Virus record (IMG/VR): IMGVR_UViG_2778261179_000021
Coordinates: 1-35,334 of that record
DNA length: 35,334 nucleotides
DNA from: a virus
Lineage: Duplodnaviria; Heunggongvirae; Uroviricota; Caudoviricetes
Strand: one strand, 5' to 3'
Shown here: one piece after another, positions 1 to 35,334 of the stretch
Layout of the letters: each line of letters opens with the position of its first letter
Position numbering within the stretch: position 1 is the stretch's first letter
The notes under the pieces: generated by a model
Databases searched by the model: none
What the model was told of the DNA's origin: nothing
The model's input: the letters and a program-made list of their open reading frames with translations, nothing else
Program-made: the position numbers and the translations under genes

Positions 1-21
1 ATGCGAGGGACAGTCGAAATT

Positions 22-351
22 ATGCGTTATCCCGTCACTCTTACACCCGCGCCGGAAGGCGGTTATATGGTTTCTTTTGTGGATATCCCTGAAGCGTTGA
101 CGCAGGGCGAAACTGTCGCTGAAGCGATGGAAGCGGCAAAAGATGCTTTACTGACCGCATTTGATTTTTATTTTGAAGATAACGAGCTTATCCCTTTACC
201 TTCGCCATTAAATAGTCATGATCACTTTATTGAAGTGCCTTTGAGCGTCGCCTCTAAGGTATTGCTGTTAAATGCTTTTTTACAGTCAGAAATCACTCAG
301 CAAGAGTTAGCCAGGCGAATTGGCAACCCGAATGTAGTCAACCCAAAATAA
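22..351 (+). CDS. hicB: HicB-family antitoxin-like protein; C-terminal HTH appears truncated
   Basis: GAGGGA RBS about 10 nt upstream of ATG at 22 (track ORF 1..351 starts at an in-frame ATG at the window edge). N-terminus MRYPVTLTPAPEGGYMVSF...QGETVAEAMEAAKDAL fits the HicB antitoxin fold. The C-terminal ...SEITQQELARRIG looks like the first helices of an XRE-type HTH, then 8 unrelated residues and a stop. Confidence 0.6.
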   Translation: MRYPVTLTPAPEGGYMVSFVDIPEALTQGETVAEAMEAAKDALLTAFDFYFEDNELIPLPSPLNSHDHFIEVPLSVASKVLLLNAFLQSEITQQELARRIGNPNVVNPK

Positions 352-8367: not shown

Positions 8368-10272
8368 ATGAAACTGATTTCGAACAAGGCCAAATTAAAA
8401 AAGATTCTCAGAAATGTTTCTGCTGCAATTCGCCCACCTAAAGCGATGAAACCTAGTGAATGGGTAGAGGCTAATGTAGTTGCAACCGATGGTGTTAAAG
8501 CCGGATCTCTTATTAAATTGCATCACTTCCAACGTGGGATGATGGACGCGATTACCGAAGATAAGCGAAAGATTGTCATGAAATGCTCGGCGCAGTTGGG
8601 TAAAACTATGGTGCTCAACGGTATTATCTTTCACAGGATCGCCACCAATCCAACCAATATAGGTGTTTTACAAGCGAACGTTCGAGAATTGAACTCATGG
8701 ATCGCGGGTAAGGTGAAGCCAGTATTAGAGGCAACCCCAGAATTAAAGGCGATGATCACCGACAAATCGGATCGCAATGCCGTTAATAACACATCGCAGA
8801 TACAGCTTAGAAATGGGTCGTTTCTTTATTTCATGTCATTGAATAGTCCATCCCATCTCCGGGGTAAGACTTTGCCGTTGATCCTTGCAGACGAGGTGGA
8901 TGGTTGCGACGAATCAGACGAAGGGAACCCGATCCAGCTAGCGGAACAACGTGCTTCCACTTTCGGGGAAGATGCAAGGATCGTAATTGCTTCTACTCCA
9001 ACGTCGCGGGATGGGGCGATAAACCAACAATACGAACTCTCAGATAAACGAAAATACTATGTTCCATGCCAGCATTGCGGACACCGACACGTAATGGAAT
9101 GGAGTAACGTTCATTTCGATTGGCATCAAGTTAACGGTAAATCACTGCCTAACCCAGATACAGCCGTTTATCGTTGCCCGTCATGTGAAACTGATTGGAC
9201 AGAAGGGGATCGCCTACGTGCTGTTGCTAAGGGAGAATGGATCGCCACCGAACCTAATGCGGAAGTAATCGGTTTTCATGCTAACCGCCTTATGTCTCCG
9301 TTTAGTTCTATCCGTGCGTGTGTGGTGGATTTTGCTGATAGCTACGCGAATATGTCACTGGCAACGTTCTATAACACTGTCTTAGGTGAAACCTTCGATG
9401 ATCTTAACGAAGACCGCACAGCCGACGAACTGGAAACGCTGAAAACTGACATTAGCCTAGACAACATCCCCGATGATGTTCTGGCTCTGGTTGGTGGTGT
9501 TGACCAGCAAAAAGACCGTCTGGAATCTACCTTGCTGGGTATTTCTCGTAAAGGGCTATGCGTAGTTGATCACCGATCATTCTATGATGTGAACTGCGAA
9601 CGCCACGAATCGCCAGCATACAGCCAGCTTTACAACTTCCTGAAAGCGAAATTCTATACCCGATCCGGTCAACGAATCCCAATGCTATCTGCTTTCGTGG
9701 ACTCATCAAACGGACGAGCTACGCAAGTGATCTACCGATTCTGCACACAATGGCAAAACCTAACAGCCATTAAAGGGGCAAGCAATGTTGATGCACCAAT
9801 CCTTCCGGTAAAAGACACAAGAACGGGCGGTTTTACTCTCAAAATTCTGGGCGTAAACAACCTTAAGACGATGATCCGTGAAATGATTAACCGGAACTTG
9901 AGAGATGGCGATCCTCACACTGTTTTCCAGATTGGCGACGTTCCTGATGACTATTGCGAGCAATTGCTTTCTGAACAGTTGAAACGGCAGGGTAATACCA
10001 CACGTTGGGTAAAAGTTGGTCAGCAACGAAACGAGGCGCTCGACTGCCTGGCTTATTCCTATGCTGCTTCTCGCCATGTACTCAATAAAATGTCATGGGA
10101 AAAACTCGAAGCCATCAAAGATAGTTTGAACCGTGAACCAGAAGAATCCGTAGAAGCTCCTAAATCGCAATCTGACGAGAAAATAGAAGAAACTAAGCCA
10201 ATCACACGACCACAACGTCAAAACATCGCCAGACGCCCAAATAGAGGCCGTAGCTGGGTAACATCGTTCTAA
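8368..10272 (+). CDS. terL: terminase large subunit, lambda GpA family
   Basis: 634 aa; by-eye matches to lambda gpA landmarks: SAQLGKT Walker-like segment, zinc-ribbon-like PCQHCGH...RCPSCETDW, FYNTVLGETFD (lambda FVNTTLGETWE), QRNEALDCLAYSYAA (lambda RRNEALDCFVYALAA). Confidence 0.85.
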   Translation: MKLISNKAKLKKILRNVSAAIRPPKAMKPSEWVEANVVATDGVKAGSLIKLHHFQRGMMDAITEDKRKIVMKCSAQLGKTMVLNGIIFHRIATNPTNIGVLQANVRELNSWIAGKVKPVLEATPELKAMITDKSDRNAVNNTSQIQLRNGSFLYFMSLNSPSHLRGKTLPLILADEVDGCDESDEGNPIQLAEQRASTFGEDARIVIASTPTSRDGAINQQYELSDKRKYYVPCQHCGHRHVMEWSNVHFDWHQVNGKSLPNPDTAVYRCPSCETDWTEGDRLRAVAKGEWIATEPNAEVIGFHANRLMSPFSSIRACVVDFADSYANMSLATFYNTVLGETFDDLNEDRTADELETLKTDISLDNIPDDVLALVGGVDQQKDRLESTLLGISRKGLCVVDHRSFYDVNCERHESPAYSQLYNFLKAKFYTRSGQRIPMLSAFVDSSNGRATQVIYRFCTQWQNLTAIKGASNVDAPILPVKDTRTGGFTLKILGVNNLKTMIREMINRNLRDGDPHTVFQIGDVPDDYCEQLLSEQLKRQGNTTRWVKVGQQRNEALDCLAYSYAASRHVLNKMSWEKLEAIKDSLNREPEESVEAPKSQSDEKIEETKPITRPQRQNIARRPNRGRSWVTSF

Positions 10273-10344
10273 TAACTCGCCGTCCTTCGGGGCGGCTTAC
10301 TCCTAAATATTGTTAATCCAATAACAATTAAATAAGGGGTAATT

Positions 10345-10839
10345 ATGAGTTTAGAACTAATTCCCTTAGTAATTCGTAAAGGCGAAAAAATCACGCTGGC
10401 GAATGAAGAGGGTGTAACAATTCAGGTAGGAAATAGTAAAGGTATCATTTATCAGGTTGATGATACTCCGGCTAATCACGAGATTAAAACCTTAGATTTT
10501 GCCGAGGGTAAATATACCATCGTAACCACGTTGGAAGATGAACTGGTATCAATGCAGGAATTAACTGTTTTACCTATTTTTCAGCGTCAATCCAAAAAAG
10601 AACATCTGCGGGAAACTATCGCCACCATCGAGCAAGTTATTTTCGCCAGGCTATCGGGGGACGAGGCCGCATTATCTCAAATGACAGTGAAAGGGAATAC
10701 TTTCGCCTATGAGTCATTAGGTGTTCTCCAGCAATTAAAGACTGATTATGAACGTCAACTGTCTAAATTAATTCAAGCCGAACGACGTAAACAGGGAATT
10801 AGCCCGATTAAAAATATCAAATTACGTCTTACGCGATAA
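10345..10839 (+). CDS. head-associated protein between terminase and portal (possible head-tail joining protein)
   Basis: AAGGGG RBS; 164 aa; position corresponds to gpW in lambda-like order; no recognisable motif. Confidence 0.5.
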   Translation: MSLELIPLVIRKGEKITLANEEGVTIQVGNSKGIIYQVDDTPANHEIKTLDFAEGKYTIVTTLEDELVSMQELTVLPIFQRQSKKEHLRETIATIEQVIFARLSGDEAALSQMTVKGNTFAYESLGVLQQLKTDYERQLSKLIQAERRKQGISPIKNIKLRLTR

Positions 10840-10849
10840 GGGGTAAATC

Positions 10850-12361
10850 ATGTTTAATCTTTTTCGACGCAAAAAGGCGGTAGAAACTCCAGTTAAAACT
10901 AATCACCGCCAGCAACAACAAAAAATTTTCATCGACAAACAAGTAGAAAAATTCCAGAAAGATTTGTCTAAACGTTCTTTGGGCTTAGTCGGTGATCGCA
11001 TTGATGGATCACTTCAACAAGACACTATTACAGGAACCTTCAATAAGGCTCTCAAATCGAACGGTAAGCGCCTTTATGACCAGGGTCGTACTCTGGCCTT
11101 AAACACTTCCGTAGGTAGTCGCTACACGCAATACATCACCGATATGGTGGTTGGTACTGGTCTAGATCCGAAGCCGTCAGTTGTTAAATCAAATGGCAAA
11201 CTTGATAGCGCACTGAATAAGCAGATCGAGAATGCTTTCTGGAAGTGGGCGCAGAATGCTAAACGCTTCTCTCGTAACGGTCGCTTTAACTTCCGTGAAT
11301 TGCTGGTAATGGCTGAACGTGAGCGCGTTATGGGTGGTGAGTGCTTCATAGTTTTAACCAAAGAAAACAATGAGTTAAATGTTTCTATCCTGTCTGCTGA
11401 TAAGTGCGACTGGACGCTCAACCGTGAAGTAAGCAAAGAACGCGCTATCTATCAGGGGATCGAGTATGACGTAGAAACAATGCGCCCTGTTGCATTTTGG
11501 TTTCGTAAAATCAACCTACTGACTCAGACTTACACAGGTGATAACTATCGCGTAGATGCTTCGCAAGTATGCCATTATTATCAACCACTTGCGGCTGAAT
11601 CTCTGCGTGGTGTGACTGACTTCCTGCCAGTGATTAAGGATATCGCACATCAAGACGCATTCCGCTTAACTGCTATCGTCCAGAAACGTATTGCAGCTAG
11701 CTCTATGGGCTTTATCGAACGTCCGAAAGATTCTGGTGACGATTTTGATACTGGTGAAGAGGATGAACAATATCAAGCGCCGGAAGTAGTACAGGATTTT
11801 GCACCGGGTACTATTCAGGAATTGCCGGAAGGGGCAACGATCAAGAGCATCCAGGCGACGCAAAGCGGTGATGATTTCAATTCCTTCAATGATGCGATGT
11901 TTACTAGCGTATCAATGGGCTTAGGCGTGTTCAAACAGGGCTTGACTGGTGATACTTCCCAGATCAACTACTCAGCCGCGCGTTTTGGGGAACTAACCCA
12001 GCGTAACCGTGTTAAAGCACTGCAAAACAAATTAATTGAAACAGTGGTATTGCCAATTTTCGAAGCGTATCTGCGTCATTATTCCGCGCGTGGTATTGTT
12101 CCGATTCGTATTACTGCAATTCCGCATATTATCGATAACACTACTATTATTCGTCCGCGTTTTGAATCCGTCGATCCATTTAAAGACGTAAGCGCCGAGA
12201 TTGCTTTAATTGATAACGGACTTAAATCACGTACTGCCGTTATATTAGAACGTGGTGATGATCCTGAAAAAGTATTCTCAGAGATTCAAGCCGAAAAGAG
12301 CGCACTAAATATTATCGTTGATGGTGAGGGTGAAGAAAAAAATTCCCCAGCCGATCCCTAA
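10850..12361 (+). CDS. portal protein (lambda gpB-like)
   Basis: 503 aa ORF immediately downstream of terL and upstream of the protease-capsid gene; size and position typical of a lambda-family portal. Confidence 0.75.
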   Translation: MFNLFRRKKAVETPVKTNHRQQQQKIFIDKQVEKFQKDLSKRSLGLVGDRIDGSLQQDTITGTFNKALKSNGKRLYDQGRTLALNTSVGSRYTQYITDMVVGTGLDPKPSVVKSNGKLDSALNKQIENAFWKWAQNAKRFSRNGRFNFRELLVMAERERVMGGECFIVLTKENNELNVSILSADKCDWTLNREVSKERAIYQGIEYDVETMRPVAFWFRKINLLTQTYTGDNYRVDASQVCHYYQPLAAESLRGVTDFLPVIKDIAHQDAFRLTAIVQKRIAASSMGFIERPKDSGDDFDTGEEDEQYQAPEVVQDFAPGTIQELPEGATIKSIQATQSGDDFNSFNDAMFTSVSMGLGVFKQGLTGDTSQINYSAARFGELTQRNRVKALQNKLIETVVLPIFEAYLRHYSARGIVPIRITAIPHIIDNTTIIRPRFESVDPFKDVSAEIALIDNGLKSRTAVILERGDDPEKVFSEIQAEKSALNIIVDGEGEEKNSPADP

Positions 12362-29717: not shown

Positions 29718-29996
29718 ATGACTGAAATTATATATGGCGGTATCGGTGTTATCGCCTTAATTTGCGGTGGTCTTTGGAGACTTCACCGAAATCAATTAGC
29801 AACTGAAAATAGATTGTCGAAATTGGAATCCAGCGACGCATTGTTAAACCAGAAGTTTGAGACGATGCAGAACAACCATACTCAGATTGCTGAACGTGTT
29901 TACCAAATGGAACAAACACTACACGGTATAGAGAAGAAAGTGGTTGCGATGGACGCCAAATTTGACCAAGTTCTCGACATACTCAAACAAAAATAA
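29718..29996 (+). CDS. membrane protein with one N-terminal TM helix and a coiled-coil tail (holin- or i-spanin-like)
   Basis: GGGGG RBS; 92 aa; IIYGGIGVIALICGGLW TM segment followed by a heptad-like helical region. Confidence 0.45.
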   Translation: MTEIIYGGIGVIALICGGLWRLHRNQLATENRLSKLESSDALLNQKFETMQNNHTQIAERVYQMEQTLHGIEKKVVAMDAKFDQVLDILKQK

Positions 29997-30014: not shown

Positions 30015-30185
30015 ATGAAGAATAAACTTAAGAAATATTTTGGTTATCTCTTGATTGTCGCCCTCACTTATAACGTAGCTATTAGACCTCTGCTAACGTC
30101 CTTTGGGCTTGAACTCCCGGCTATGACCGTGGATGAACAATTGCTAAGGACACTGGCGGGGGTCTTTTCGTTATTAGGGGGCTAA
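30015..30185 (+). CDS. small putative membrane protein (56 aa)
   Basis: AAAGGGG RBS; hydrophobic segment YFGYLLIVALTYNVAI; stop is 1 nt before the next start; absent from the track because shorter than 60 aa. Confidence 0.35.
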   Translation: MKNKLKKYFGYLLIVALTYNVAIRPLLTSFGLELPAMTVDEQLLRTLAGVFSLLGG

Positions 30186-31265: not shown

Positions 31266-31619
31266 ATGTTAAGCAAACATTTTTCTCGCAAGGAATTTAA
31301 ATGTAAATGCGGAAAATGTGATTATGATACAATCGACGCTGAATTACTGGTAATTCTTGAGGATGTACGAGAGCACTTCGGTAAACCAGTGATTATTAAC
31401 AGTGGCAACCGTTGCCCGACTCATAACAAGAATGTAGGCGGGGCAGCCAATAGCTATCACGTTCGAGGCCGTGCGGCTGACATTGTTATCAAGGGTGTCT
31501 CACCTGATATTGTTCATGCTTATCTTGATGGGAAATATCCTACTCAATACGGCTTAGGAAAATATAAAACATTTACGCATATCGATTCCAGATCAAAAAA
31601 ATCACGGTGGAATGGATAA
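31266..31619 (+). CDS. endolysin, peptidase M15-type zinc peptidase (cell-wall peptidase)
   Basis: AAGGGGG RBS; 117 aa; motif …IINSGNRCPTHNKNVGGAANSYHVRGRAADIVIKG…THIDSR fits the His/Asp/His zinc site of M15-family peptidoglycan peptidases. Confidence 0.75.
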   Translation: MLSKHFSRKEFKCKCGKCDYDTIDAELLVILEDVREHFGKPVIINSGNRCPTHNKNVGGAANSYHVRGRAADIVIKGVSPDIVHAYLDGKYPTQYGLGKYKTFTHIDSRSKKSRWNG

Positions 31620-31891: not shown

Positions 31892-32149
31892 CTATGATTT
31901 ATTTTCTTGTTCTATGAAAATCTTTCTCACCTCATCAGAATAAATGTCTAGTGATTCCTCATAACATTTTCTGTATTCACCGTAATTACTGGTGGTCTTT
32001 TGACATAGCAATTTCAATGTCTTATGTGCTCCATCAATGAAAGCATCTTCTCTATAGGTTAGCGGTCTACGCATTTCTTGGTCTACGGTTGCCAATGCCA
32101 AGCAAGAATTCATAGATAAAATCAAACCTAAAATCTTAATCATCTTCAT
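31892..32149 (-). CDS. small secreted protein (85 aa, signal peptide, two cysteines)
   Basis: ATG at 32149 (track start is an upstream TTG); MKMIKILGLILSMNSCLALA signal-like N-terminus; start is 3 nt from the recombinase stop, suggesting translational coupling. Confidence 0.5.
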   Translation of the reverse strand: MKMIKILGLILSMNSCLALATVDQEMRRPLTYREDAFIDGAHKTLKLLCQKTTSNYGEYRKCYEESLDIYSDEVRKIFIEQENKS

Positions 32150-32153
32150 TAGC

Positions 32154-33833
32154 TTAAATTCCAAATTCTTGTAATGGACCTGGTATTTCTTCTTCTGGTT
32201 TCCAGTTCTTATCTGTCAGCATGTCTAAACATGGATGCAGAACAAGCCCGTTACTCTCCAGAATCTGCCTATCATTGATAGTCTTCAAATCAACGAAGAT
32301 CCGGCCTTTCCTCGGTCCTCTTGAATTTTCTATTACAACTCTCTGGGTCTTGCCATCGATGTATTCCAGTACAAACAAGTTTTTGTACTTGTCAATCCTG
32401 CTACACCCGATCCGTTTTAGAGCTTGCTTAATCTTAAACCGGACCTTAATGCGATCCTCGTTGTAAACATCTTCTAAATCAAATTCTACGAGCTTCTCCC
32501 AGCCTTGAGAGTCAACAGAATACATTTCCTCTTCTGCCATCTTAATTTGATTGTAGAGTGTTTCACGCTCGCTATTGAGGGTAGTAATCTGATCGGCTAG
32601 CTCCTTCGTTGCTCCTGTCATAGCAGAAAGGGTAATCAGGTTATCAATCTTGCGTGATATTTCATCAATCTGTACTTTCAAAGCCGGAACCGGATTAGCC
32701 TTATCTTCAGCAATCCAGATTTTATCAGCCAGCAATTGCAATACAGCTTTCTCTAATTGGTCGCCGCGAAAACTCCAGTTTGTATGCACACATTCAATAC
32801 GACTAGAGCGCATTGCATCGCATGAATAACGATATTGGTTAGGCCGTCTGTTTGTTCCTTTCACCTTAACCATAGCGGAACCGCAATGTTCACATTTCAA
32901 TAGACCAACACCACTAAGCAAGGGAATAGGTTTAACTTCTTCTTTGTCTCCAAAGTTACATGCTCTAACACCAATGCTTTTCTTAAGGTGATAAAACTCA
33001 GCGTCATCTAGCACACGAGGATAATAATCCTTTAACTCATACTTAACGCCATCTACAGAGATTTCCTTGATACCAATCAAAGCGCGGGTATGGAACAACC
33101 TTTCAATCATTGCCCGTGACCAGTTTGAATGCCTCTTGTGACTTGCGGCTGGTGGTGGTGTGTATGTCGCGTTAAGGTGATCCAGTATCTCGGCGGTTGA
33201 CCGTCCATTCCTGCGTAATTCCACAACTTCCTGAACAATAGGGAAGAAGACCGGATGAGGAAGCACATAACCAGATGTGGTATCAGTCCACCACATATTC
33301 TTTCCAATTTCCTCGATTGCAACAGCCGGATTTTGTGGATTTTCTTGATGAGCTTTAATCTTAATCAGTGCGCTTGAGTTAGTACGATTGCGCTTAGTCT
33401 GGCTTTCCTCATTACCACGGATGAATAAAAGGATGGAGAACATCAGGTCCATCGGGTTAGCGGTAACAGTATCCAGCGAGTAGATCTTGTTATCCATGCC
33501 AGTAACAATGGTTATCCCCCTACGGATGATTGAAAGGAATAACTCCTGCGCACTGACAATATCGGCACGGGATAAACGGTCCAAGTTTTCGATGAATAGC
33601 CAGCTACCAACAGGAACGGATCTACCTATTGCATCAAGGAAACGAGATAGCGCCCCTGTTTTGGAGTTAGCACCCTTAAACGCAGATACACCCAGATCCT
33701 GATAATCATTTACCAGTTCAAGGTCATACTTTACCGCAATCTCTCTAGCCATCCTGATTTGTCGTTCATAACTCGAACCATCATTCTGACGCATAGACGA
33801 GAAGCGAATATACGAATACAGTTTAGTTTTCAT
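32154..33833 (-). CDS. large serine recombinase (probable integrase)
   Basis: 559 aa from ATG 33833 (track start is an upstream TTG); N-terminal resolvase-type catalytic domain with YIRFSSMRQ (serine nucleophile) and …ENLDRLSR…; C-terminal extension with zinc-ribbon-like cysteines (CEHCGS…YRYSCD) and a coiled coil. Confidence 0.9.
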   Translation of the reverse strand: MKTKLYSYIRFSSMRQNDGSSYERQIRMAREIAVKYDLELVNDYQDLGVSAFKGANSKTGALSRFLDAIGRSVPVGSWLFIENLDRLSRADIVSAQELFLSIIRRGITIVTGMDNKIYSLDTVTANPMDLMFSILLFIRGNEESQTKRNRTNSSALIKIKAHQENPQNPAVAIEEIGKNMWWTDTTSGYVLPHPVFFPIVQEVVELRRNGRSTAEILDHLNATYTPPPAASHKRHSNWSRAMIERLFHTRALIGIKEISVDGVKYELKDYYPRVLDDAEFYHLKKSIGVRACNFGDKEEVKPIPLLSGVGLLKCEHCGSAMVKVKGTNRRPNQYRYSCDAMRSSRIECVHTNWSFRGDQLEKAVLQLLADKIWIAEDKANPVPALKVQIDEISRKIDNLITLSAMTGATKELADQITTLNSERETLYNQIKMAEEEMYSVDSQGWEKLVEFDLEDVYNEDRIKVRFKIKQALKRIGCSRIDKYKNLFVLEYIDGKTQRVVIENSRGPRKGRIFVDLKTINDRQILESNGLVLHPCLDMLTDKNWKPEEEIPGPLQEFGI

Positions 33834-33846
33834 ACCATTTCCAAAC

Positions 33847-33882
33847 AAAAACGCCCCTACCGCGTATTATAACGATAGGGGC
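33847..33882 (-). terminator. putative intrinsic terminator between the secreted-protein gene and the recombinase
   Basis: GCCCCTA ... TAGGGGC 7-bp stem with 16-nt loop, preceded on the + strand by AAAAA. Confidence 0.35.
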
Positions 33883-33896
33883 TAGGTGATTAAAGA

Positions 33897-34316
33897 TTAA
33901 AGAATTTCACGGCAGCTAATCAGGGAATAAGACGTATCACCTTTTTTAACATCAAATATAGGCGCACCATCTACAGAATGCAGATATTTGATGTAGGATT
34001 TACCATCTTCGGAACCATAATATTCTTCTTTCTCGTTCTTATCTTCTTTCAGTTTTGGGCTTTTGATTGTTTTATCAAATACCGGATCGTTGAAAGCAAA
34101 TTGACTATTATCATCATTCACTCGAACCTTTACACCGATAAAACCACGGTATTTGCCAGACGGCGCATGATAATAACGATCGCCATCACTCAGGTAGCGT
34201 GTATCATCTCCTTTATATTCGAAGTAGGAATTGCACACATAATAGGTATAGGTATTAGCATTCGCAGCACCAACCAAACCCAGAGCAAGAACAACACCAG
34301 CGATAATCTTTTTCAT
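33897..34316 (-). CDS. secreted hypothetical protein (139 aa, signal peptide)
   Basis: ATG at 34316 with AAGAGGA RBS; MKKIIAGVVLALGLVGAANA signal peptide; Tyr/Asp/Lys-rich mature region. Confidence 0.6.
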   Translation of the reverse strand: MKKIIAGVVLALGLVGAANANTYTYYVCNSYFEYKGDDTRYLSDGDRYYHAPSGKYRGFIGVKVRVNDDNSQFAFNDPVFDKTIKSPKLKEDKNEKEEYYGSEDGKSYIKYLHSVDGAPIFDVKKGDTSYSLISCREIL

Positions 34317-34361
34317 AGTAGAATTTCCTCTTGTTGTTTGAATTACGATATATTTATATCA

Positions 34362-34484
34362 TTAAAAGTTAATGCTAATAATCAGACCAAACACAACCGC
34401 ACCAATCAAATCAATCCAGTTAATACACAGCGAATATTCTTTCTTGAATGTCTTAGATGAAATGCCATCATGAAATTGTTTCAT
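34362..34484 (-). CDS. small hydrophobic peptide (40 aa)
   Basis: GGGGTGAG RBS 5 nt upstream of ATG at 34484; MKQFHDGISSKTFKKEYSLCINWIDLIGAVVFGLIISINF with a C-terminal TM-like segment; absent from the track. Confidence 0.35.
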   Translation of the reverse strand: MKQFHDGISSKTFKKEYSLCINWIDLIGAVVFGLIISINF

Positions 34485-34487
34485 TGC

Positions 34488-34568
34488 TCACCCCATACTA
34501 ACGACAATATAAGAAAGACTAATCATGGTTGTGAGACTACCTCCCACGAATGAGATAAAAGCTAACAT
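34488..34568 (-). CDS. small hydrophobic peptide (26 aa)
   Basis: GGAG RBS 9 nt upstream of ATG at 34568; MLAFISFVGGSLTTMISLSYIVVSMG; its stop lies 3 nt before the next micro-ORF start. Confidence 0.3.
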   Translation of the reverse strand: MLAFISFVGGSLTTMISLSYIVVSMG

Positions 34569-34583
34569 GTTTGATTCTCCATT

Positions 34584-34610
34584 TAAAAAGCGGTGGGAAT
34601 TACACCCACC
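34584..34610 (-). terminator. intrinsic terminator downstream of the 145-aa gene
   Basis: GGTGGG-AATTACA-CCCACC hairpin; on the minus strand it is followed by GCTTTTT. Confidence 0.5.
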
Positions 34611-34624
34611 AAATTAGAAATTAA

Positions 34625-35062
34625 TTAAGCGCGAACGATGGTCAGAGTATCCAGCAAACCTTTTTCGTATAATTCGAAACACGTTTTATATTGCTCAATC
34701 TTCCAACCGTAGCGGGTGATCTTATTCAGTAGAATAATCACGGTATTCTCATCTAGGTATTGTCCTTGCTTACCAATTACATATGACTCGCGGGATAGTC
34801 TCAGCTTACGGAAACCTTTAACACCTAATTCCTTAGCCACCGCTTTAACCTCGTTAATCTCACCTTCTGCGGCTACATATTCAGCGTCGATAATCTCAGT
34901 TGATGATCTCAGTGCTACCAGAACTAAGGCCATTGCTTCTTCTTCGGTACGAGCAACACCAGCTTTCTCGAAAGTCATCTCACCAAATTTACGAGTCATA
35001 ATATTGAACATTGTCTGTATTCCGTTTAAATCGGCGGGAATAGTACCCGCCAAATTAGACAT
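34625..35062 (-). CDS. hypothetical protein (145 aa)
   Basis: ATG at 35062 overlapping the upstream stop (TAATG coupling); no recognisable motif. Confidence 0.6.
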   Translation of the reverse strand: MSNLAGTIPADLNGIQTMFNIMTRKFGEMTFEKAGVARTEEEAMALVLVALRSSTEIIDAEYVAAEGEINEVKAVAKELGVKGFRKLRLSRESYVIGKQGQYLDENTVIILLNKITRYGWKIEQYKTCFELYEKGLLDTLTIVRA

Positions 35063-35334
35063 TACTTCTTGCTGATAAACTCTTTAGCGATAAAGTTGAT
35101 TACTTCTTTCAGCTTCTTGTCTGTATCGATGCACGCTGGTAATTCTTCTTTAATATCCTGCGGCAGATACACATTGCCTTTAAAGTGGAGGAAACCATCA
35201 TTACCAATCATGTAGGAGAACATCCATTCACAATCGTTATCCGCTTCCCAGAACGCCACGGTCTCATCCCCAATCAAGGTAATGTCCATGTTGCGACGCG
35301 CTGCGTAGTTGATGATTGCTTTACCGATGTTCAT
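35062..35334 (-). CDS. hypothetical protein (90 aa or longer; start codon at the window edge)
   Basis: ORF runs to the last base of the window (…GATGTTCAT is the reverse complement of ATGAACATC); may extend upstream beyond the window. Confidence 0.5.
   Translation of the reverse strand: MNIGKAIINYAARRNMDITLIGDETVAFWEADNDCEWMFSYMIGNDGFLHFKGNVYLPQDIKEELPACIDTDKKLKEVINFIAKEFISKK

Follow-up and report, generated by a model that had tools for sequence, protein, structure and literature searches.

Do two very short hydrophobic open reading frames near one end of an enterobacterial prophage specify real proteins and, if so, in what kind of process might these take part? The frames in question, hereafter ORF1 (26 aa, MLAFISFVGGSLTTMISLSYIVVSMG) and ORF2 (40 aa, MKQFHDGISSKTFKKEYSLCINWIDLIGAVVFGLIISINF), lie on the minus strand of a 35,334-nt stretch of viral DNA (IMG/VR record IMGVR_UViG_2778261179_000021, Caudoviricetes), the whole of which was analysed and is called the window below. 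A first-pass annotation, made from the letters of the sequence, had described two tandem micro-ORFs of 26 and 40 aa following a terminator, and both are present exactly where it placed them, with a terminator-like hairpin directly upstream (Table 1). Its account of the initiation signals needs some adjustment: the GGAG before ORF1 is separated from the ATG by 8 nt rather than 9, and the G-rich site before ORF2, thought to lie 5 nt from the ATG, ends 2 nt before it, with its GGGG core 6 nt upstream. The claimed distance of 3 nt between the ORF1 stop and the ORF2 start is correct. At the junction a TGA stop is followed by GCA and then by ATG, and hence the two frames are separated by a 3-nt spacer and share a common reading frame.

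Table 1. Features around the ORF1–ORF2 pair, with positions counted from the first letter of the window
Feature	Position	Strand	Evidence or remark
ORF1, uncharged hydrophobic micro-protein	34488..34568 (including stop codon)	-	Homologues of 25-27 aa in 49/49 loci
ORF2, basic N-terminal motif and predicted C-terminal transmembrane helix (tail-anchor-like)	34362..34484	-	Relatives, codon statistics
GGAG, Shine-Dalgarno-like	34577..34580	-	8 nt before ORF1 ATG
G-rich Shine-Dalgarno-like stretch GGGGTGAG ahead of ORF2	34487..34494	-	Overlaps last ORF1 codons and ORF1 stop
Terminator-like hairpin before ORF1, loop UGUAAUU, then T5	34591..34611	-	7-pair stem, 7-nt loop, tail CTTTTTAAAT
Second copy of the hairpin unit, stem GGCGGG/CCCGCC, no T-run	35032..35059	-	Compensatory stem change
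Strong terminator-like hairpin between cargo genes and recombinase, TATAAT in loop	33853..33882	-	Compensatory stem changes in L013
First cargo gene, 90 aa, phrog_6147 (function unknown)	35062..35334	-	Next to attachment site
Upstream cargo gene, 128 aa from MFNIM, phrog_14908	34625..35011	-	Homologues 128 aa
Downstream cargo gene, 139 aa, signal peptide MKKIIAGVVLALGLVGAANA, predicted secreted	33897..34316	-	Relatives have same signal peptide, unrelated mature parts
Large serine recombinase (integrase)	32154..33848	-	Co-oriented with the pair and linked in every locus

On the evidence of the window the pair is weak, since a tandem pair of hydrophobic ORFs of 20-60 aa arises in 18 of 300 mononucleotide shuffles (6%); a second hydrophobic pair in the window, clearly spurious, is found inside a large real gene. 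What makes the pair more than chance is the comparative evidence from relatives. ORF1, whether queried as a peptide or as an alignment, has no match in Pfam, NCBIfam, PHROGs, PADLOC or the PDB sequences, and for ORF2 the same collections yielded nothing usable (a single hit to phrog_36089 at E=0.089). Rfam scans of the region gave matches at chance level, the phage and plasmid collections contained no relative of the pair region or of ORF2, no ORF2 was recovered from the GTDB species-representative genomes with peptide patterns or a degenerate DNA pattern, and literature searches on the peptide strings and on the prophage type found nothing specific. The ORF1 C-terminus (VY.VVNA) bears a faint likeness to a segment of KdpF (VYALINA); the Pfam scan, whose models include KdpF, lends this no support, and we do not retain it. 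In the databases ORF2 is at most a "hypothetical protein" (e.g. WP_000808558.1), called by PGAP in 2 of 12 RefSeq E. coli loci (L001-L012), and ORF1 is essentially never annotated, having been called once and left unnamed.

At its 3' end the window reaches the boundary of an E. coli prophage about 35 kb long. Of 5,426 complete E. coli genomes, about 60 have the same DNA, in each case on the chromosome. From the attachment site inward, the minus strand carries in turn a 90-aa gene, a 128/145-aa gene, a hairpin, ORF1, ORF2, a 139-aa gene, a terminator-like hairpin, the recombinase gene and a gene for a small secreted protein. We assembled 49 loci with ORF2 (the window and L001-L049 minus duplicates) from E. 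coli and other enterobacterial genera. In every one of them ORF1 comes first and ORF2 second, followed by a co-oriented large serine recombinase, and the pair always lies between this gene and the prophage attachment site. The recombinase is of 559-564 aa with Resolvase, Recombinase and Zn-ribbon domains, and its versions in other genera are 70-75% identical; in IMG/VR, the contigs retrieved with ORF2 as query are those retrieved with the recombinase. The recombinases that come next in similarity (31-35% identical) are found directly at the attachment site, without cargo genes and without ORF1 or ORF2, and some of these adjoin ycdX remnants too.

The genes around the pair are far less constant. 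In the E. coli loci ORF1 and ORF2 are adjacent, and ORF2 is followed by one or two cassettes: some of these specify predicted secreted proteins (75, 81 or 132-139 aa) with a signal peptide in common, and others a 113-aa coiled-coil protein with an anchor or a 348-aa CapR/T5orf172 endonuclease. In the other genera the space between ORF1 and ORF2 is taken up by genes for a cytoplasmic protein of 62 aa, a secreted two-cysteine protein of 75-80 aa, or both, joined through ATGA overlaps, and ORF2 is there frequently followed by the terminator and int with no further gene in between. Further cargo includes a lipoprotein with a lipobox and OmpW-like/OMP β-barrel proteins. The coupling of the frames takes different forms, namely the 3-nt stop-start spacer seen here and ATGA overlaps with the neighboring genes in relatives. 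The initiation signals persist across these arrangements: GGAG or AGGAG is kept before ORF1, also in copies that start with GTG, and before ORF2 the place of GGGGTGAG is taken by AGGAG, AAGGAAG or an ATGA stop/start overlap. Judged by the predicted products of these genes, the cargo operon is directed largely at the envelope; its cassettes exchange, and the pair is what stays constant in it.

The comparison of relatives bears directly on the question of coding. A block of about 308 nt, extending from the 128/145-aa gene to the 139-aa gene, is 93-100% identical across 55 E. coli genomes, among which the genes flanking it are exchanged for unrelated ones. Within the E. coli-type copies the variable sites of ORF1 are distributed over codon positions 1/2/3 as 1/1/7 (binomial p=0.008). 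For ORF2, which we divided into a 40-codon and a 41-codon form, they fall as 6/3/15 (p=0.003) and 4/3/15 (p=0.0009), respectively, and the change in length between the two forms is a single 3-nt in-frame indel (SLC versus SGLC). The pN/pS ratio of ORF2 is 0.08-0.48, with pS near saturation. Its first 13 residues, M[KR]QFH[DE]GISSKT[FY], are kept across relatives including those of other genera, with Gly7 written by four codons and Ser10 by TCT, TCC, AGC and AGT, that is, by both serine codon families; the helix that follows keeps its length and hydrophobic character while its sequence drifts. An exhaustive ORF2 profile search against 1.84 billion representative proteins recovered nine clusters in total, all of 39-41 aa except for one gene-caller extension. 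The non-E. coli hosts of the cluster loci belong to other genera, since their csgG-ycdX segment is only 71-78% identical to that of E. coli. ORF1, being too short for database tools, was located in relatives by eye and script; it is present in every locus as a frame of 25-27 codons with an ATG or GTG start behind a GGAG-type site, under the consensus M..L[IL]SF......T..S.VY.VV.A., of which the motif SF...T..S.VY.VV is kept at about 40% identity.

Conservation at the peptide level in relatives, named beforehand as the point on which the proposal of a coding pair could fail, is thus observed across genera for both peptides. The codon-position bias, synonymous saturation, in-frame indels and constant ORF lengths across genera show that both frames are under protein-level purifying selection. 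We consider ORF1 and ORF2 very probably to be real, translated, membrane-directed micro-proteins. Genes of this kind are already known: a survey of Enterobacteriaceae ("The Cryptic Bacterial Microproteome", PMC11188072) catalogued 67,297 clusters of intergenic ORFs of 15-70 codons under purifying selection, the products of which are mostly hydrophobic or transmembrane. The pair is an instance of this class, its two families being themselves uncharacterized; peculiar to this case are the strict co-occurrence of its two members and their link with a serine integrase. With it, the prophage gene set gains two micro-protein families that have good support. In most genomes both genes escape the annotation pipelines, and codon statistics across relatives offer a way to recover genes of this sort.

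The composition of both peptides fits the earlier description of them as predicted single-helix membrane peptides. The Kyte-Doolittle maximum over 19 residues is 1.67 for ORF1 and 2.14 for ORF2. ORF1 has no charged residue at all, and by its composition it appears to be an uncharged single-span inner-membrane peptide. ORF2 has four lysines within its first 15 residues, all N-terminal of the helix, and its hydrophobic stretch reaches the last residue. By the positive-inside rule a basic segment is expected on the cytoplasmic side. ORF2 is accordingly predicted to be a tail-anchored single-span peptide with its basic N-terminal 13-15 residues, M[KR]QFH[DE]GISSKT[FY]KK, facing the cytoplasm; since the helix is at the very end, its membrane insertion would be post-translational, as in tail-anchored proteins.

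Several natural variants of the pair are informative. In an in-frame fusion of ORF1 to ORF2 the TGA is changed to GGA, giving a protein of 69 aa (WP_096837455.1) that is found on 5 contigs from several E. coli strains (L049 2501..2710; Logan ERR3062202 and others). The ORF2 start is retained in this fusion, and the G-run before it is even stronger. The common reading frame had suggested programmed read-through of the TGA; we rejected this as a conserved feature, the spacing between the frames in other variants being +5, +9/+10 or -4 nt. A single-sequence AlphaFold2 model of the 68-aa read-through fusion (P0002) has helices at residues 2-35 and 39-67 (pLDDT 76, pTM 0.47) and says nothing on packing or function. 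A divergent form of ORF1, MKLLELLILSIFSAF[VF]LAVYIVVIV, occurs in three loci. This variant type (MKLLELL..., L005/L006) lacks an obvious Shine-Dalgarno site. In L042 (988..1077) it has lost 1 nt from a T-run and with it the original frame; the new frame, of 29 codons, remains hydrophobic, and an ATGA overlap connects its end to ORF2. In E. coli 23CRST001 (L004 2313..2396) a third hydrophobic micro-ORF of 27 aa, MKQVIACASVLLVTVYCSAGLVWVIAH, comes after ORF2; its spacer and start context are the same as those of the secreted-protein cassettes, and it might be what is left of a signal peptide, or else a further micro-protein.

As to expression, the T5 hairpin before ORF1 is kept in all the E. coli-type loci fetched but one (L049, with a variant copy) and is absent in 8 of 8 loci from other genera. 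Promoter scans returned sites no more commonly than in shuffled sequences, with none before the E. coli-type operon; in the E. coli form neither the operon nor ORF1 is preceded by a convincing promoter. A promoter-like site before ORF1 was detected in L045 only. In the E. coli forms the hairpin stands so close to ORF1 that a promoter would not fit between them. This suggests expression by limited read-through, and the hairpin would hold expression of the pair to a low level.

What might such a pair do? In our best explanation, ORF1 and ORF2 are two genuine, co-inherited micro-protein genes of an enterobacterial prophage lineage that uses a large serine recombinase. The N-terminal motif of ORF2, being invariant while the helix drifts, suggests contact with a conserved partner, on which it would most likely dock at the inner face of the inner membrane. 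Since ORF1 is always co-encoded with ORF2 and occasionally fused to it, it is the obvious candidate for ORF2's partner within the membrane; in the fused protein, the two helices would be joined by the motif as a loop on the cytoplasmic side. We speculate that, within an envelope-directed accessory module, the two small proteins modulate a larger protein of the inner membrane, a role that we favor because of the surrounding cargo, and the favored sub-case is superinfection exclusion, that is, a block to the entry of incoming phage DNA. Taken as a whole, this chain of real membrane micro-proteins, docking, and envelope or exclusion modulation is offered tentatively, its probability falling well short of even. 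Against it stand the terminator-like hairpin directly upstream together with the failure to find a convincing promoter, the MKLLELL type of ORF1 without an obvious Shine-Dalgarno site and its frameshift in L042, and the want of homology to any characterized protein.

The envelope or exclusion role, taken by itself, is possible but doubtful. In its favor, neighboring cassettes carry signal peptides, a lipobox or OmpW/OMP β-barrel domains, and the pair, as would be expected of an exclusion gene, specifies predicted membrane products from a site away from the structural and lysis genes, in the envelope-directed cargo that lies between att and int. Small membrane proteins that serve exclusion or modulate the host are familiar from phages. 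Known exclusion proteins such as T4 Imm, T4 Sp, HK97 gp15 and P22 SieA are small phage inner-membrane proteins that are encoded by accessory or lysogeny-side genes and act at the envelope, and the setting of the pair among genes for secreted, lipoprotein and outer-membrane products is comparable. These proteins are larger, however, at about 80-160 aa or more, with periplasmic or multi-span parts; they share no sequence similarity with the pair, and the predicted form of ORF2 is a cytoplasmic motif with one helix. Several known exclusion proteins act from the periplasmic side, and the predicted lack of a periplasmic part in ORF2 speaks against this role, as does the presence of the pair in every member, which is the behavior of a core gene and not of a dispensable moron. 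A second parallel is with MgrB, AcrZ, KdpF, MgtS/MgtR, PmrR and Caulobacter SidA, which are often unannotated peptides of 26-50 residues with one helix that bind a larger membrane protein. Unlike these chromosomal peptides with known partners, the pair is prophage-borne, consists of two peptides and has no match in Pfam or NCBIfam. If it is indeed an exclusion or envelope-modulating device, this would explain why it is the sole constant element of an exchanging operon. An invariant 13-residue motif on a membrane anchor, tied strictly to one integrase lineage, is in any case a defined handle for a partner search.

Among the three functions that the first-pass annotation had put forward, an exclusion factor appears the most plausible on present sequence evidence, and the other two fit poorly. 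A membrane-damaging toxin—a type I toxin-like peptide, an abortive-infection effector or an addiction module that depolarizes the inner membrane when expression rises—would accord with products of 26 and 40 aa, below the roughly 60 aa of the type I class and with one predicted membrane helix each. They resemble ShoB, TisB, Ibs, Ldr and Hok in size and hydrophobicity, ORF2 is ShoB-like in its order of charged N-terminus and C-terminal helix, the T5 hairpin just upstream would keep expression low, and a weak antisense promoter-like site (TTTATA-18-AATAAT) is present at the ORF2 3' end. Yet this site has no counterpart in the other genera, where ORF2 runs directly into the terminator, and unlike those stand-alone, silenced type I loci the peptides are translationally coupled in an operon, in places by ATGA overlaps, and are not accompanied by an antisense RNA gene. 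Neither Rfam nor PADLOC yields a match, and an invariant, predicted cytoplasmic motif of 13 residues points to specific binding rather than to general membrane damage; hence we regard a toxin as unlikely. The proposal of holin/antiholin-like modulators of lysis timing draws on the tandem occurrence of small, phage-encoded, predicted membrane peptides, and meets with difficulties of place and of form. The pair is about 3 kb from the endolysin gene (31266..31619, plus strand), on the opposite strand and beyond the integrase in the att-int module, and there are better candidates near the lysis genes at 29718..29996 (one hydrophobic segment) and 30015..30185 (two). Holins are typically of at least about 60 aa, and we know of none as short as ORF1 or ORF2; in addition, both peptides end inside the hydrophobic stretch without a charged C-terminal tail, and in place of a dual-start motif there is a single N-terminal ATG per ORF and two unrelated products. 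A role in lysis is thus highly improbable.

The tight association with the recombinase raises a different prospect, namely that ORF2 regulates the lysogeny machinery, either by tethering or titrating the recombinase as a directionality factor or anti-factor, or by inhibiting a membrane protease such as FtsH in the manner of lambda CIII, so that integration, excision or the decision between lysis and lysogeny would be biased. Every locus shows ORF2 in strict synteny and in the same orientation as the recombinase, the ORF2 motif equals the catalytic domain of the recombinase in conservation, and several genera have no gene between ORF2 and the terminator that precedes int. Yet ORF2 and int can be set apart by a terminator together with one or two unrelated cassettes, the recombinases of 31-35% identity lie directly at the attachment site without cargo and without ORF1 or ORF2, the small cytoplasmic proteins of the operon are more conventional candidates, and we know of no membrane-anchored directionality factor. 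Lambda CIII is a soluble, amphipathic, lysogeny-side peptide of 54 aa that acts on FtsH; it shares with the pair its small size and its place on the lysogeny side of a temperate phage, without sequence similarity to ORF1 or ORF2, and a link of these to FtsH is hypothetical. Such a regulator is quite unlikely in our estimate. A more elaborate version, in which the ORF2 13-mer would bind Int or an Int cofactor and hold Int at the membrane with ORF1 as co-anchor, thereby coupling integration or excision to the state of the envelope, is a very long shot; to our knowledge, envelope-coupled directionality control has not been described for serine integrases. There is finally the reading in which the frames are not functional proteins at all, the block being kept as RNA or DNA (a terminator, processing site or recombination linker) or the peptides serving as leaders for translational coupling. 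The block does border the points of cassette exchange, a hairpin with a conserved loop and covarying stem is found at its 5' end, and other genera insert cassettes between ORF1 and ORF2. Against this, the codon bias, synonymous saturation, in-frame indels and constant lengths bespeak selection on protein; the RNA fold of the region is unremarkable (z = -1.6), and Rfam has no match. A leader peptide is free to vary in sequence and has a fixed place before the gene it regulates, whereas different genes follow ORF1 and ORF2 in different loci. We accordingly give the non-protein reading very little credence.

Some further features of the region deserve mention. The hairpin before ORF1 belongs to a 28-nt unit, TCTAATTTGG[Y]GGGT...ATTCCC[R]CCG, that occurs twice on the minus strand (34591..34618 and 35032..35059), each time between the end of a cargo gene and the ribosome-binding site that comes next. 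The loop of this unit is conserved and its stem covaries (GGTGGG/CCCACC, GGCGGG/CCCGCC, AGCGGG/CCCGCT in L005 and a G-U variant in L006/L042), with a T-run only at the copy before ORF1; instead of simply terminating transcription, the unit could bind a protein or serve as a processing site. The 145-aa reading of the upstream cargo gene, which begins at 35062 and is also that of PGAP, probably starts too early, because the 128-aa homologues start at MFNIM (35011) and the extra 17 codons correspond to the inserted hairpin unit. The hairpin at 33853..33882 has a perfect TATAAT in its loop, and may be a terminator in which an int promoter element is embedded; the compensated stem of L013 comes from another genus, and the loop differs in L045.

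With regard to the cargo, MKKIIAGVVLALGLVGAANA and the spacer after ORF2 are joined to unrelated mature domains of 55-120 aa in L005, L008, L017, L025 and L047, a pattern that suggests cassette exchange by recombination within a conserved 5' linker. The 348-aa endonuclease cassette with CapR homology and the T5orf172 domain directly follows ORF2 in L007 (1812..2858) and in L027. The small secreted two-cysteine family is represented in the window at 31892..32164 (minus strand), where its gene and the end of the recombinase gene overlap; the members from other genera lie between ORF1 and ORF2 with ATGA overlaps (L016 4777..5004, L043 2145..2378, L045 3777..4004). The plus strand opposite the 139-aa gene and the 3' portion of ORF2 has a very hydrophobic 160-aa ORF (33978..34460), which is probably spurious because the DNA beneath it is replaced in relatives.

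Elsewhere in the prophage, a segment at about 9019..11670 (plus strand) is 71-82% identical in DNA to the distal long-tail-fiber gene (gp37) of T-even-like phages, and it is the only part of the prophage that matched the phage collection. The window opens at 1..351 (plus strand) with the 5' part of a host antitoxin gene, hicB (phrog_497), and its last position, 35334, is the start codon of the first cargo gene, which abuts a truncated hicB. Hence, the prophage splits hicB, with one part at the start of the window and the other next to its end; its close relatives split ycdX or codB instead.
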